Below, one piece after another: positions 7,118 through 11,851 of a stretch of 12,185 nt of DNA. Origin of the DNA: a virus (Duplodnaviria > Heunggongvirae > Uroviricota > Caudoviricetes); IMG/VR virus record IMGVR_UViG_2541047898_000011; one strand, 5' to 3'. How positions within the stretch are numbered: the stretch's first letter is position 1; each line of letters opens with the position of its first letter. Under the pieces are notes generated by a model. It was not told the origin of the DNA, did no database searches, and worked only from the letters and a program-made list of their open reading frames with translations. Both the position numbers and the translations under genes were made by a program.

Positions 7118-7810
7118 TTAATTATGTCTCTTAAGGGTTTGCGACTGACTGATTAAGACCTTTCCAAAGACCATGAATCGGTGTTCGTTTTCGCTAGTAA
7201 TTCCCCATTCACGGTAAATCTGGTTATCAGAAATCACCAGCAGTTTGTCAGGAATCATTTGAAGTCTTTTAACGTATATTTTGTCATCAAAACCAAAGAC
7301 ATATATACCATCACCATCAAACTGATTGATGCTGACATCAACGAAGATGAGATCTCCTGGCTCAATGGTTGGACACATACTGTCCCCACGAACGTTGATA
7401 ACTTTGATGTGATTGGCTGGTCGTCCGCCGAACATTGATACAGCATTATCAGTTCTGTATTCGATGGCATGAATCACATCAATGACATCACCGCCCTGGA
7501 TAAGGCCATTTCCCGCACTGGCACTGATATCCAACATTTCAATACGGAACACATCCTTCACCTGCGCAACATCCTCATCATTACTGTTTTTATATACAGT
7601 ATTACTTTTGAGGGCAGAGGTAAAGAGATCAGCAATATCAACACCTAAGCTCTTGGCAATATTACTCAGTGTTTGTTCGGTAAATTGTTTCTGCTTACCC
7701 GTTTCTAAGCGCGAGATGTTCGCCGCATCTACTCCTATTGCTTCAGCGAGATCGGCGATTTTCATGTTCTTCGCTTGGCGAAGTTGTCTGACTCGTTTTC
7801 CTATGTTCAT
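7118..7810 (-). CDS. cI-like prophage repressor (HTH XRE domain plus S24 LexA-type peptidase domain)
   Basis: 230 aa; N-terminal HTH (IADLAEAIGVDAANISRLETG), Ala-Gly site in SASAGNG, GDSM serine and a downstream lysine (VKRLQ); no SD before the ATG, consistent with a leaderless transcript. Confidence 0.85.
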   Translation of the reverse strand: MNIGKRVRQLRQAKNMKIADLAEAIGVDAANISRLETGKQKQFTEQTLSNIAKSLGVDIADLFTSALKSNTVYKNSNDEDVAQVKDVFRIEMLDISASAGNGLIQGGDVIDVIHAIEYRTDNAVSMFGGRPANHIKVINVRGDSMCPTIEPGDLIFVDVSINQFDGDGIYVFGFDDKIYVKRLQMIPDKLLVISDNQIYREWGITSENEHRFMVFGKVLISQSQTLKRHN

Positions 7811-7907: not shown

Positions 7908-8168
7908 ATGCAATCACCATTACGAAATGTGCGTAAGGCGCATGGTTTCACTTTGCAGCATGTTGCTGCGGGTGTTCAAGTCAATCCAGCGACGTTGAGT
8001 CGTATTGAGAGGCTGGAGCAGATTCCATCTATCGAGCTTGCAGAACGTTTAGCCAATTTTTTTAAGGGTGAAATCAGCGAAATGCAGATTCTTTATCCGG
8101 CACGTTTTCAATCTAGCCAAAACCAGAATGGGTTTAAACCACAGGAACAGGAGGTGAACCGTGGGTAA
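7908..8168 (+). CDS. Cro-like HTH (XRE family) regulator
   Basis: 86 aa; HTH FTLQHVAAGVQVNPATLSRIE; first gene divergent from the repressor. Confidence 0.7.
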   Translation: MQSPLRNVRKAHGFTLQHVAAGVQVNPATLSRIERLEQIPSIELAERLANFFKGEISEMQILYPARFQSSQNQNGFKPQEQEVNRG

Positions 8169-8712
8169 GCATCACTGGAAAATAGAAAAACAGCCTGAGT
8201 GGTACGTGAAAGCTGTCAGAAAAACTATCGCGGCGTTGCCGGGTGGTTACGCTGAAGCGGCTGATTGGCTCGATGTAACAGAAAACGCTTTATTCAACCG
8301 CCTTCGTGCAGATGGCGATCAGATTTTCCCGCTGGGATGGGCAATGGTTTTACAGCGTGCTGGTGGCACTCACTTCATTGCTGATGCTGTGGCGCAGTCT
8401 GCAAATGGCGTATTTGTGTCTCTTCCTGACATCGAGGATGTGGACAACGCCGATATCAACCAACGCCTGCTGGAGGTCATTGAACAGATCGGCAGTTATT
8501 CAAAACAGATTCGTTCAGCAATTGAAGACGGTGTAGTGGAACCGCATGAGAAGACAGCAATTAACGATGAGCTGTACCTCTCAATTTCGAAGCTGCAGGA
8601 GCATGCAGCACTGGTCTACAAAATCTTTTGCGTTTCAGAAAGTAGTGACGCCCGCGAGTGTGCAGCTCCGGGCGCCGTGGCGTGTCGTGACTGTGGAGAA
8701 ACTAACGCATGA
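8161..8712 (+). CDS. CII-like lysogeny regulator (phage 186 CII / CP76-type, YdaT-like)
   Basis: 183 aa; GTG start with AGGAGG at 6 nt; position after cro; architecture resembles 186-type CII as I recall it. Confidence 0.5.
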
Positions 8713-9047
8713 ACAGTTTAACAACACACTACCGTCGCTCGCAACTGATTGCGCTTCCTGTACCGGGTGGAAAAGCGAAGGTGGAGTATTGCTATGCAGT
8801 GAATGTACCAGGTGACAGGGAAATTGTAACCCACAGCTTTGCAGAGTGGGCTGTGGGTGATTTCAACCGGCAGAAGGAGACAGTCCTTTGCGACAAGTTA
8901 ACCGCTGGTTCAAAGATCACTACGGAGTGCCCGTCAGAGTCATTCGTTGGGAACCGGAAACACAACGGGTTATCTACCTCCGCGAAGGCTATGAGCATGA
9001 GTGCTTCAGCCCGCTCGAACAGTTTCGTCGTAAATTCAGGGAAATAG
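8709..9047 (+). CDS. Hypothetical ORF translationally coupled to the CII-like gene; C-terminal half doubtful
   Basis: ATGA overlap with the upstream stop; N-terminal 55 aa protein-like, C-terminal part Ser/Ala-rich and low-complexity; a different frame looks more protein-like from 8861. Confidence 0.3.
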
Positions 9048-9067
9048 AGGTCGGTCATGAGCACTAA
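8888..9067 (+). CDS. Candidate small protein in an alternative frame (TTG start), coupled to the replication gene
   Basis: AAGGAG at 8874-8879, 8 nt spacer, TTG at 8888; reads [40 protein letters not shown]...; stop at 9065-9067 overlaps the replication gene ATG at 9057. Confidence 0.3.
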
Positions 9068-9998
9068 ATTAACCGGCTATGTATGGGATGGTTGCGCAGC
9101 GTCAGGCATGAAATTATCCAGCGTGGCAATTATGGCCCGCCTGGCTGATTTCAGTAATGACGAAGGTGTGTGCTGGCCATCAATTGAAACCATTGCCCGC
9201 CAGATTGGCGCGGGGATGAGTACCGTCAGAACGGCTATCGCACGGCTGGAAGCAGAAGGCTGGTTAACGCGTAAGGCGCGTCGCCAGGGTAACCGCAATG
9301 CGTCGAATGTTTATCAGCTTAACGTTGCGAAGCTTCAGGCAGCGGCATTTTCTCAACTGTCAGATTCTGACCCGTCAAAATCTGACGCATCAAAATCTGA
9401 CCCGTCAAAATTTGATGCGTCGAAATCTGGCAAAAAAGCGGGTTTTCACCCGTCAGAATCTGGCGGGGATCCGTCAGTAAAATCAAAACATGATCCGTCA
9501 GATAAAAAACCTTCTCGTCCGGACGCTTCGCAACCGGACACGCAGACGGCTGAACAGGATTTTTTAACTCGCCATCCTGATGCGGTTGTATTCAGCCCTA
9601 AAAAACGCCAGTGGGGGACGCAGGATGATTTGACCTGCGCACAGTGGCTCTGGAAAAAAATCATCGCCCTGTACGAGCAGGCAGCCGAATGTGACGGCGA
9701 GGTGGTTCGTCCCAAAGAACCGAACTGGACAGCCTGGGCAAACGAAATTCGCCTGATGTGTGTGCAGGATGGTCGTACTCACAAACAAATCTGCGAGATG
9801 TACAGCCGCGTCAGCCGCGATCCGTTCTGGTGCCGTAACGTGCTCAGCCCGTCGAAGCTGCGGGAAAAATGGGATGAGCTTTCCCTGCGCTTATCGCCGT
9901 CCGTCAGCACATACACAGAAAAACGTGAAGATCCGTACTTCAAATCCAGTTACGACAACGTGGACTACAGCCAGATCCCGGCAGGATTCAGGGGGTGA
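9057..9998 (+). CDS. Replication initiator, lambda O-like (N-terminal winged HTH, iteron-encoded linker, C-terminal domain)
   Basis: 313 aa; N-terminal HTH; internal SDPSKSDASKSDPSKFDASKS linker encoded by tandem 15 bp DNA repeats; position after cII. Confidence 0.65.
   Translation: MSTKLTGYVWDGCAASGMKLSSVAIMARLADFSNDEGVCWPSIETIARQIGAGMSTVRTAIARLEAEGWLTRKARRQGNRNASNVYQLNVAKLQAAAFSQLSDSDPSKSDASKSDPSKFDASKSGKKAGFHPSESGGDPSVKSKHDPSDKKPSRPDASQPDTQTAEQDFLTRHPDAVVFSPKKRQWGTQDDLTCAQWLWKKIIALYEQAAECDGEVVRPKEPNWTAWANEIRLMCVQDGRTHKQICEMYSRVSRDPFWCRNVLSPSKLREKWDELSLRLSPSVSTYTEKREDPYFKSSYDNVDYSQIPAGFRG
9361..9510. repeat. Putative origin of replication: four 15 bp iterons plus CCGTCAG-containing repeats inside the initiator gene
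   Basis: TCTGACCCGTCAAAA (9366-9380), TCTGACGCATCAAAA (9381-9395), TCTGACCCGTCAAAA (9396-9410), TTTGATGCGTCGAAA (9411-9425); cagattctga at 9361-9370 recurs inverted at 9454-9463. Confidence 0.55.
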
Positions 9999-10489
9999 TC
10001 ATGAGTCTTTTGAATGAAGTTCAGAAATTCATTGAAGCCCATCCGGGGTGTACTTCCGGAGACATTGCGGATGCTTTTGCAGGTTACTCACGGCAGCGCG
10101 TTCTGCAGTCAGCAAGCAAGTTACGTCAGAGTGGGCGTGTGGCTCACCGTTGTGAAGGAGATACACGCAGACATTTCCCGCGCCTGACTGAGAGAGCGCA
10201 GGAACCGGAACCACAACCAGTTCGTGAAACCAGACCTGTGCGCAATTTCTATGTCGGCACTAACGACCCCCGGGTGATTTTGTGCCTGACCCGCCAGGCT
10301 GAAGAACTGGAGTCCAGGGGCTTATACCGTCGTGCTGCAACGGTGTGGATGGCGGCATTCCGTGAAAGCCACTCCCAGCCAGAACGAAACAATTTTCTGG
10401 CGCGTCGTGAACGGTGTTTACGGAAAAGCAGTAAGCGGGCTGCATCAGGTGAAGAGTGGTATCTCTCAGGGAATTACGTGGGGGCTTAA
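9995..10489 (+). CDS. Phage protein with N-terminal winged-helix-like region and C-terminal PerC-like motif
   Basis: 164 aa; C-terminal LE..G.YRRAA..W...R......RR..CL pattern resembles PerC/Pch regulators as I recall them; ATGA coupling with the replication gene. Confidence 0.4.
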   Translation: MIMSLLNEVQKFIEAHPGCTSGDIADAFAGYSRQRVLQSASKLRQSGRVAHRCEGDTRRHFPRLTERAQEPEPQPVRETRPVRNFYVGTNDPRVILCLTRQAEELESRGLYRRAATVWMAAFRESHSQPERNNFLARRERCLRKSSKRAASGEEWYLSGNYVGA

Positions 10490-11142
10490 TGAGTAATAAA
10501 TATTGCCAGGCGCTGGCGGAACTGCGGAACAAACCAGCCCATGAACTGAAGGAAGTGGGCGATCAGTGGCGCACGCCGGACAACATTTTCTGGGGAATTA
10601 ACACCCTGTTTGGCCCGTTTGTTCTGGATCTGTTCACTGACGGTGATAACGCCAAATGTGCTGCGTATTACACGGCGGAAGACAACGCGCTGGCGCATGA
10701 CTGGTCAGAACGCCTTGCGGAGCTTAAAGGTGCTGCCTTTGGTAATCCCCCATACAGCCGCGCCAGTCAGCATGAGGGGCAATACATCACCGGCATGCGT
10801 TACATCATGAAGCATGCCAGTGCCATGCGTGATAAAGGCGGGCGCTATGTTTTCCTGATCAAAGCTGCCACCAGCGAAGTGTGGTGGCCGGAAGATGCAG
10901 ATCATATTGCTTTTATTCGCGGGCGTATTGGTTTTGAACTGCCTGCCTGGTTTATCCCGAAGGATGAGAAGCAGGTGCCGACAGGCGCTTTCTTCGCTGG
11001 TGCTATTGCTGTTTTCGACAAGACCTGGAAGGGACCGGCAATCAGCTACATCGGGCGCGATGAACTTGAGTCATGTGGTGAGGCCTTTCTGGCGCAGGTT
11101 CGCCAGCAGGCAGAAAAACTGGTCAGGGAGATGGCGGCATGA
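10489..11142 (+). CDS. Phage Dam-type DNA N6-adenine methyltransferase
   Basis: Motif IV NPPY (GAAFGNPPYSR); preferred start ATG at 10489 (MSNKY) overlapping the upstream stop as TAATG; ORF track gives 10456-11142. Confidence 0.7.
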   Translation: MSNKYCQALAELRNKPAHELKEVGDQWRTPDNIFWGINTLFGPFVLDLFTDGDNAKCAAYYTAEDNALAHDWSERLAELKGAAFGNPPYSRASQHEGQYITGMRYIMKHASAMRDKGGRYVFLIKAATSEVWWPEDADHIAFIRGRIGFELPAWFIPKDEKQVPTGAFFAGAIAVFDKTWKGPAISYIGRDELESCGEAFLAQVRQQAEKLVREMAA

Positions 11143-11465
11143 CGACGTTAACTCAATGCCAGCAGCAGGTGCTGGATATGCTGATTTCTTATCAGAAAGA
11201 ACGTGGCTTCCCGCCAACCAATCAGGAGGTGGCAACCATGCTGGGATACCGTTCAGTGAATGCAGCGGTGGAGCATCTTCGCGCACTGGAGAAAAAAGGC
11301 GTCATCACGATAAAGCGTGGCGTGGCCCGGGGCATCACGCTTCATACCGCGGTGAAGGACGACGACAGCGAGGCGGTCGGGATTATCCGCGCACTGCTTG
11401 CCGGTGAGGCAAACGCCAGGCTGCGTGCAGCCCACTGGTTACATGAGAGGGGCCTGAAAGTATGA
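11139..11465 (+). CDS. LexA DNA-binding-domain-only protein (no peptidase domain)
   Basis: 108 aa; LTQCQQQVLDMLISYQKERGFPPTNQEVATMLGYRSVNAAVEHLRALEKKGVI closely parallels the LexA N-terminus (LTARQQEVFDLI...[34 protein letters not shown]); ATGA coupling. Confidence 0.55.
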   Translation: MTTLTQCQQQVLDMLISYQKERGFPPTNQEVATMLGYRSVNAAVEHLRALEKKGVITIKRGVARGITLHTAVKDDDSEAVGIIRALLAGEANARLRAAHWLHERGLKV

Positions 11466-11851
11466 AGCTAATACTGCCTTTTCCGCCCAGCGTGAACACG
11501 TACTGGCGACACCCCAACAAAGGGGCGCTTGCAGGTAAGAGCCTGATAAGCGCGGCGGGGCGAAAATTCCAGAGCGCAGCGTGTGCAGCCATCATTGAGC
11601 AGTTACGTCGTCTGCCGAAACCAACGTCGGCACCAGCTTCAGTGGAGATCGTGTTGTTTCCTCCGGATAACCGGCTTCGCGATCTGGACAACTATAACAA
11701 GGCGCTGTTTGACGCCCTGACCCACGCGGGTGTGTGGGTGGACGACAGCCAGGTGAAAAGAATGCTGGTGGAGTGGGGGCCGGTTATCCCGGAAGGGAAG
11801 GTCGAAATCACTATCAGTAAGTACGAGAAAACGGCGGGTGCAGCCGCCTGA
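11462..11851 (+). CDS. rusA: RusA Holliday-junction resolvase
   Basis: 129 aa; LPFPPSVNTYWRH and RDLDNYNKALFDALT...VWVDDSQV match RusA motifs; usual position in the ninR region. Confidence 0.8.
   Translation: MKLILPFPPSVNTYWRHPNKGALAGKSLISAAGRKFQSAACAAIIEQLRRLPKPTSAPASVEIVLFPPDNRLRDLDNYNKALFDALTHAGVWVDDSQVKRMLVEWGPVIPEGKVEITISKYEKTAGAAA

Follow-up and report, generated by a model that had tools for sequence, protein, structure and literature searches.

The stretch of DNA analysed here, referred to throughout as the window, comprises 12,185 nucleotides of a lambdoid temperate phage (IMG/VR record IMGVR_UViG_2541047898_000011), and its replication initiator gene carries a set of short repeated sites in the middle of the coding sequence. 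We consider it probable, with few reservations, that positions 9360-9515 are the replication origin of this phage, or at least the cognate initiator-binding array of that origin. This reading is based on the anatomy of the repeats, selection at synonymous sites, a coupling to the N-terminal domain of the initiator that holds when searched from either side, the joint exchange of domain and array in front of the same C-terminal domain, and a position matching that of ori lambda.

Repeat anatomy and selection on the DNA

Tandem Repeats Finder reports a single strong array in the window, at 9366-9429, with a period of 15 bp, 4.3 copies of the consensus TCTGACCCGTCAAAA and a score of 86; the same region is also called with a period of 30 and a score of 100. 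The original prediction, made from the sequence of the window, had described four tandem 15-bp repeats, which are found at 9366 (TCTGACCCGTCAAAA), 9381 (TCTGACGCATCAAAA), 9396 (TCTGACCCGTCAAAA) and 9411 (TTTGATGCGTCGAAA). With up to three mismatches allowed, the consensus occurs five times in the window, always between 9366 and 9458, against an expectation of 0.40, and none of 200 shuffled sequences reached five occurrences. The repeats had been placed inside an O-like gene as the source of an SDPSK/SDASK peptide, and they do lie in frame in the open reading frame 9057-9998, a member of phrog_391, where they encode SDPSK SDASK SDPSK FDASK.

When 317 units from 75 non-redundant related genes were stacked, the conserved unit was an 11-bp near-palindrome, TCA(A/G)A(A/T)TCTGA (5-1-5), followed by a 4-bp variable spacer. 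By repeat search and these base frequencies the array consists of five head-to-tail 15-bp units at 9360-9430, with cores at 9360-9370 (TCAGATTCTGA), 9375-9385 and 9390-9400 (both TCAAAATCTGA), 9405-9415 (TCAAAATTTGA, one mismatch) and 9420-9430 (TCGAAATCTGG, one mismatch), while a sixth, inverted core lies at 9453-9463 (TCAGAATCTGG) within a 19-bp palindrome. The sites possess internal dyad symmetry, as TCAGA-W-TCTGA is a 5-1-5 palindrome from which TCAAAATCTGA differs by one base. The pattern TCARAWTCTGR has five matches in the window (four sites, the palindromic one being counted on both strands), where 0.06 would be expected, and all fall within 9360-9463. We prefer the 11-mer register over others, as the conserved block is the 11-mer, although sequence alone cannot settle the register; an alternative 14-bp palindromic site, TCTGA-N4-TCARA, was set aside as a register that spacer symmetry does not support.

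Some of the features noted earlier can now be understood in terms of this core. The fourth repeat had been described as the inverted complement of the second, and the arms in question (9384-9401 and 9404-9421) are 89% complementary; this complementarity arises because every unit is internally symmetric, it is not a separate feature, and no covariation among relatives keeps the pairing. The inverted copy reported to flank the array corresponds to the first and sixth cores (TCAGATTCTGA at 9360-9370 and TCAGAATCTGG at 9453-9463), which belong to longer arms at 9361-9380 and 9443-9462 that are 85% complementary. Further CCGTCAG motifs had also been pointed out; they occur at 9450, 9471 and 9495, among ten copies in the window where 1.0 is expected.

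The number of units varies from two to eight across relatives, and differs even among near-identical phages: of 78 such contigs, 74 share the four-unit spacing, three have one extra unit and one has two. Most point variants among these 78 phages sit in the 4-bp spacers.

In frame, the unit reads TCA AAA TCT GAY NNN, and its codon usage departs strongly from that of the genes that carry it. Units for this comparison were picked by their first and second codon positions only (TCN AAN TCN GAN, n=142). The first serine codon is TCA in 96% of units (31% of TCN codons elsewhere in the same genes), the second is TCT in 89% (16% of TCN codons), and the lysine codon is AAA in 123 of 123 (61% in the background), whereas the wobble positions of the aspartate codon (C 76%, T 24%) and of the fifth codon are free to vary. 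The contrast between core and spacer wobble bases within the same unit serves as a control for shared ancestry and repeat homogenisation. A similar pattern is seen beyond the array: over ten conserved codons of the palindrome and the adjoining segment with two GATC sites, the majority third base has a mean frequency of 0.90, and in five of the ten it reaches 0.95 or more (TTT 1.00, GAA 0.96, TCT 0.97, GAT 1.00, TCA 1.00 and GTA 1.00 are examples of fixed or nearly fixed third bases in this segment), compared with a mean of 0.56 and none of 51 conserved codons in the N-terminal domain (Mann-Whitney p=1.3e-5). Because synonymous sites in the cores are nearly fixed while the wobble bases of the spacers and of the N-terminal domain vary, we conclude from these comparisons that the array is under selection as DNA, not as protein.

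Between the array and the palindrome lies a poorly conserved spacer with an A6 tract (9431-9448), in which column conservation is low before 9441, also in alignment A3. The palindrome itself, CCCGTCAGAATCTGGCGGG at 9449-9467 with one mismatch, is the most conserved element of the region; its wobble bases are nearly invariant across the 75 genes, and it is kept even in 52%-identical relatives with different upstream repeats (loci L084 and L086, discussed below). To its right, at 9468-9515, follow two repeats spaced by 24 nt (direct repeat family D9), each composed of GATCCGTCAG and an A-rich run, which together form a candidate DNA-unwinding segment; the equivalent 24-nt unit is present in 2.4-2.5 copies in phage phiP27 and in locus L077. 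The GATC sites are at 9468-9471 and 9492-9495. The first, formed by the aspartate codon of a GGDP motif (GAT followed by C), is kept in 75 of 75 relatives and the second in 67 of 75. GATC is not enriched across the window (42 sites, 49 expected), so that this pair stands out by conservation only. The least stable 40-mer of the gene, 9476-9515 (70% AT, z=1.8 relative to the window), adjoins the palindrome and carries the second GATC.

Coupling of the array to the winged-helix domain

The initiator gene, on the plus strand, encodes 313 amino acids (aa) and matches phrog_391, "replication initiation O-like", with E=8e-136. Its N-terminal domain (aa 1-99; 9057-9353) is a winged helix, as indicated by Pfam, AlphaFold2 and Foldseek, and is the inferred origin-binding domain. 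The HTH_36 family (PF13730) matches aa 23-70 with 42.9 bits against a cut-off of 25, and most of the listed homologues carry a precomputed PF13730 annotation. The AlphaFold2 model, built on a 47-sequence alignment, has helices at residues 3-16, 20-31, 43-50 and 54-66, wing strands at 70-74 and 84-88, and a fifth helix at 90-99. Foldseek matched this domain to winged helices of the MarR/ArsR type, and sequence and fold searches yielded no solved relative of the initiator other than these generic folds. The Pfam matches listed at E<=0.01 (HTH_36, GntR, HTH_29, PaaX, DnaD_N, RP-C and MarR) do not include Phage_rep_O (PF04492). The C-terminal part (aa 166-278) is a confident helical model, within which aa 182-277 (9600-9887) are homologous to the C-terminal domain of lambda O (lambda residues 186-270; BLASTP E=7e-26). 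This domain carries the significant alignment to lambda O (query 70-277), and BLASTP found no significant similarity between lambda O and the N-terminal domain. Between the two domains is a predicted disordered linker (aa 103-163; 9363-9545), with an AlphaFold2 predicted local distance difference test score below 50 at residues 103-156 and 158-163. The linker carries the whole repeat region, the array corresponding to codons 102-125 and the palindrome to codons 131-137.

Relatives were gathered through the N-terminal 100 residues and comprise 13 annotated phage records, 80 prophage loci (one genome per species, N-domain identity 52-100%) and 80 IMG/VR contigs with identical N-domains. Repeats follow directly after the N-domain in nearly every intact relative over this range of identity and across many genera of Enterobacterales. 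The coupling also holds in reverse. When the ori core DNA alone (CAGAATCTGGNGGGGATCCGTCAGTAAA) was searched against IMG/VR, 120 loci were found, 114 of them testable, and the N-domain was encoded directly upstream in 113; the sole exception is an array interrupted by the insertion of an insertion sequence (IS) transposase. At that locus (L249, IMGVR_UViG_2526164609_000016, about 640-1200), the transposase gene, IS66-like by eye, ends right upstream of CAAAAAAGCGGG and takes the place of the N-domain and the tandem units; the palindrome and the C-domain remain. It looks like an inactivated prophage replicon.

The domain at the other end of the protein is exchangeable. The N-domain and array are joined to at least three or four distinct C-terminal domains: the lambda-O type (14 loci), a TGSRYQ...EYLRP type (the majority), the type of L084 and L086, and that of phiP27. 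These classes were defined by motifs; single-linkage clustering of BLAST matches was abandoned, as it merged all types through shared tails. Conversely, phage mEp460 has the same C-domain, with 96% nucleotide identity from window position 9499 onward, preceded by an unrelated N-domain, and at the matching spot it carries a different array, 5.4 copies of a 23/24-nt unit (GGTCAAAATGACACGATGCCATCG) followed by 3.2 copies of ACAGAGAATACA. The distantly related HTH_36 initiators of phages 24B and RAH1 likewise have 24-nt repeats of their own directly after the N-domain. From these exchanges the N-domain and the array appear to constitute a portable specificity unit that recombines with several alternative C-terminal domains.

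Several further observations touch on this modularity. Recombination joints cluster at 9499-9535, where similarity to phiNP ends (9535) and similarity to mEp460 begins (9499); the overlap encodes PS(C/R)PxAxQPD, a conserved junction at which the N-domain-plus-ori cassette meets the C-domains that are exchanged. A similar C-terminal tail, ...(D)YSxIPxGFRG (the last 12 codons, 9963-9998), ends initiators with differing C-domain types, and many Shiga toxin (Stx) and other phages match only window positions 9923-9998 (query 867-942), at 96-97% identity, which suggests either a mosaic joint or a shared protein-interaction peptide. In the two most distant loci, L084 and L086, with 52-53% N-domain identity, the presumed recognition helix changes from STVRTA to STVYGA. 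In L084 (a proteobacterial metagenome-assembled genome, 1874-1984) 3.4 copies of a 33-nt repeat containing CTCCAGTATTTAGAG replace the 15-bp units, and L086 (Citrobacter braakii) has a weak 15-nt repeat, ACCTCCAGATTTTGA, in 2.9 copies. The terminal palindrome, CCTCCAGA(A/T)TCTGGAGG, and the GATC pair are retained in both loci, whose repeats may represent a specificity variant.

Proposed replication origin and competing explanations

We propose a mode of action modelled on phage lambda, in which dimers of the N-domain bind symmetric cores (PMC3349717, PMC7466680). Dimers of the winged-helix domain would occupy the 11-bp cores, five in tandem at a 15-bp period and the sixth 33 bp further on inside the 19-bp palindrome. 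The resulting complex, similar to the lambda O-some, would then strain the adjoining A/T-richer DNA at 9468-9515, which contains the two GATC sites and the least stable DNA of the gene, and the lambda-O-like C-terminal domain would recruit the helicase-loading machinery. As no P-type loader gene is present, the partner is presumably DnaB of the host, together with DnaC. Each element of this scheme, from binding and unwinding to helicase recruitment and origin activity, is inferred from sequence comparisons.

Several points weigh against the identification of 9360-9515 as an origin. The 15-bp period amounts to about 1.4 helical turns and would place adjacent sites on nearly opposite faces of the helix, unlike the iterons of lambda and plasmids. 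The AT content of 9476-9515 is modest (70%, compared with 77.5% in lambda), and less stable DNA occurs at many other places in the window. There is no DnaA box, at up to one mismatch, within 650 bp of the array, and no P-like or DnaC-like gene after the initiator, where the next genes are PerC-like and Dam. In the wobble comparison, units were treated as independent despite their common descent and possible homogenisation among repeats. The SfIV record contains no origin annotation, and we found no relevant paper containing the repeat sequence of the array.

The alternative hardest to exclude is that the initiator binds these sites for another purpose, with opening taking place elsewhere: autoregulation, through a roadblock or operator within the gene, or titration and "handcuffing" for control of copy number. 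Selection on the DNA and coupling to the N-domain fit any role as cognate binding sites, and the weakness of the adjacent A/T-rich segment would suit such a role. Three observations nevertheless favour the origin and make a purely regulatory or titrating array rather unlikely: the 12-kb window holds no further core, the position relative to the homologous C-domain matches that of ori lambda, and the conserved block runs on into the GATC-led, A-rich repeats that contain the gene's least stable DNA.

A second possibility is that (SDxSK)n is a low-complexity protein linker expanded by slippage, with no function in the DNA. The segment does encode a predicted disordered linker, and the variable unit number, even among near-identical phages, is what slippage might produce. 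We regard this explanation as very improbable in view of the near-fixation of synonymous positions in the core, compared with spacers in which synonymous and non-synonymous positions both vary. At the codon starting at 9453 the residue alternates between serine and proline, but all relatives have A as the third base. The inverted palindromic copy is also conserved, and the same C-domain can be preceded by unrelated N-domains, each with an unrelated array of its own.

The symmetry of the region might instead reflect a hairpin or cruciform in mRNA or single-stranded DNA, serving as a translational pause or priming signal, and not sites in duplex DNA. The plus strand at 9355-9515 does fold well (-28.4 kcal/mol compared with -14.3 for shuffled sequences, z=-5.2), but we rejected this model because covariation is absent: among 26 relatives of equal unit number the covariation score was 0.042, a value equalled or exceeded in 424 of 500 shuffles, which had a mean of 0.046. 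It is the invariant palindromic cores that supply the paired positions, and no covariation is seen between N1 and N4 of the spacer. The sole Rfam match, mir-5880, scored 30.7 bits against a gathering score of 97, far below threshold, and is a chance match to palindromic repeats that identifies no known RNA family. A structured-nucleic-acid role is thus scarcely credible.

Equally implausible is the proposal that the sites serve some other protein (a host factor, the PerC-like or cII-like regulators, or SeqA or Dam at the GATC pair), for although the GATC pair is conserved and a Dam gene is often close, the neighbouring genes are inconstant (PerC-like in 17, the upstream 112-aa gene in 34 and cII-like in 60 of 86 related loci) while the ori core occurs together with the N-domain in 113 of 114 loci, and a host factor would not explain an array that changes with the N-domain.

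SeqA or Dam could additionally act on the GATC pair at the origin proposed here. In at least 35 of the 86 related loci a Dam homologue is encoded downstream of the initiator gene, no more than about 0.9 kb away, and it is possible, as a hypothesis, that the methylase is a functional partner of the two GATC sites. One may extend this to a distinct and widespread Enterobacterales phage replicon type, whose firing is gated by methylation of the GATC pair through the phage Dam and whose host helicase is loaded without a phage loader. The basis for gating by methylation is solely the conserved pair and the frequent adjacent Dam gene, and we consider this extended proposal unlikely.

Genome setting and comparison with known origins

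The initiator gene shares 98-99.9% identity with genes annotated as replication protein O or primosomal protein in the Shigella phages SfII and SfIV and in several E. coli phages, which places the window in the SfII/SfIV group. The early genes follow the lambdoid order: a cI-type repressor gene (7118-7810, minus strand), cro (7908-8168), a cII-type gene (8161-8712), a gene of unassigned function (8709-9047) and the initiator. Directly after it comes the gene at 9995-10489, whose 164-aa product is PerC-like in its C-terminal part (Pfam, E=7.8e-9), matches a PHROG family of unknown function in its N-terminal part and is not similar to lambda P. On these similarities, the gene following the initiator is not a helicase loader; among 12 relatives with the lambda-O-type C-domain, a P-like gene is present only in L078. 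A Dam-type adenine methylase gene (10456-11142, plus strand; Pfam Dam, E=9.7e-46) and a RusA gene (11462-11851) lie further downstream. A search of 8900-10100 revealed no internal promoter. On the minus strand at 9452-9439, CGGGTGAAAACCCG forms a terminator-like stem followed by a T-run; the stem is not conserved in relatives and is probably incidental.

Many records already call this gene "O"; other database labels are "helix-turn-helix protein", "primosomal protein" and "O-like". The SfIV genome paper names a replication module and discusses no origin, and a paper on the replication regions ("Eru") of Stx phages does not mention iterons. An origin within the initiator gene, with iterons matched to the N-domain, is the textbook arrangement for lambdoid phages, and the one described here is well supported but expected. 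It supplies a candidate origin and recognition sequence for a replication module frequently carried by prophages of Escherichia, Shigella, Klebsiella, Salmonella, Yersinia and related genera. It also offers an example of one stretch of DNA serving two purposes, in which the DNA signal fixes the wobble positions and the peptide encoded there is a linker that tolerates change. Annotating prophage origins, predicting the incompatibility of co-resident prophage replicons and building mini-replicons are potential uses.

Iteron plasmids of the Rep_3 class (RepA, pi, RepE) have iterons of about 17-22 bp at a spacing of roughly 22 bp, one or more DnaA boxes and an A/T-rich DNA-unwinding element. The present system differs in its 15-bp period, in the lack of a DnaA box within the 650 bp searched and in an initiator without a Rep_3 match in Pfam. 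E. coli oriC and P1 oriR are Dam-dependent origins with GATC-rich unwinding elements. The window is similar to these in having conserved GATC sites in the A/T-richer part adjoining the putative initiator-binding sites; it is unlike them in having only two such sites and no DnaA box nearby.

Closer parallels are found among phages. The "O" initiators of Stx phage 24B and Klebsiella phage RAH1 have a distantly related winged-helix N-domain (43-45% identity over aa 25-94) and repeats inside the gene; unlike those described here, the repeats are 24-nt units of unrelated sequence, and the next genes encode a primase-helicase or a P-type protein. The mEp460 initiator (LR595868, "Primosomal protein I") offers the complementary case: its C-domain is the same and its array occupies the same position in the linker, but the N-domain is unrelated and the repeat unit differs. 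Stx phages 933W and "P27", as studied in Gdansk, have origins with six lambda-type iterons (PMC7466680). Iteron number, and linker length with it, varies between related phages there as it does here; in contrast, those phages combine a lambda-type O with lambda-type iterons, and the present array belongs to another sequence class. The L17 gene of phiP27 (NC_003356), a sequenced phage not to be mistaken for the Gdansk "P27", is a member of the present family.

The closest comparison remains with lambda itself, as the original prediction had recognized in likening this arrangement to an origin inside gene O. Ori lambda consists of four 18-bp iterons and a 38-bp AT-rich region within that gene (PMC3349717, PMC7466680; annotated in NC_001416), the annotated iterons occupying O codons 117-145, which is the corresponding linker. 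Just right of the AT-rich region, lambda has a palindrome, CAGAATTCTG within CGTCAGAGAATTCTGGCGAATCC (L168, about 868-880), resembling CGTCAGAATCTGGCGGGGATCC at window positions 9454-9462, and the 3.2 copies of ACAGAGAATACA in mEp460 (L293, about 1176-1213) lie at the place matching the lambda palindrome. This resemblance may reflect a shared element upstream of the homologous C-domain, or chance.

The differences from lambda are genuine. The N-domain is HTH_36 here and Phage_rep_O in lambda; the sites are an 11-bp TCARAWTCTGA core at a 15-bp period, where lambda has 18-bp iterons starting 20-24 bp apart; and the window has, in addition, the 19-bp palindrome and the conserved GATC pair, with no P gene following. 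That the repeats differ in sequence from those of lambda had been anticipated, and our comparison with the lambda origin agrees; with both the N-domain family and the repeat sequence unlike their lambda counterparts, the distinct initiator specificity proposed on that ground is reasonable. Both phages nonetheless carry internally symmetric repeated sites midway along the initiator gene, where it encodes the linker that joins a DNA-binding N-domain to a C-domain; the C-domains are homologous, the order of the early operon is common to the two, and DNA richer in A/T, though only modestly so in the window, follows rightward of the sites.

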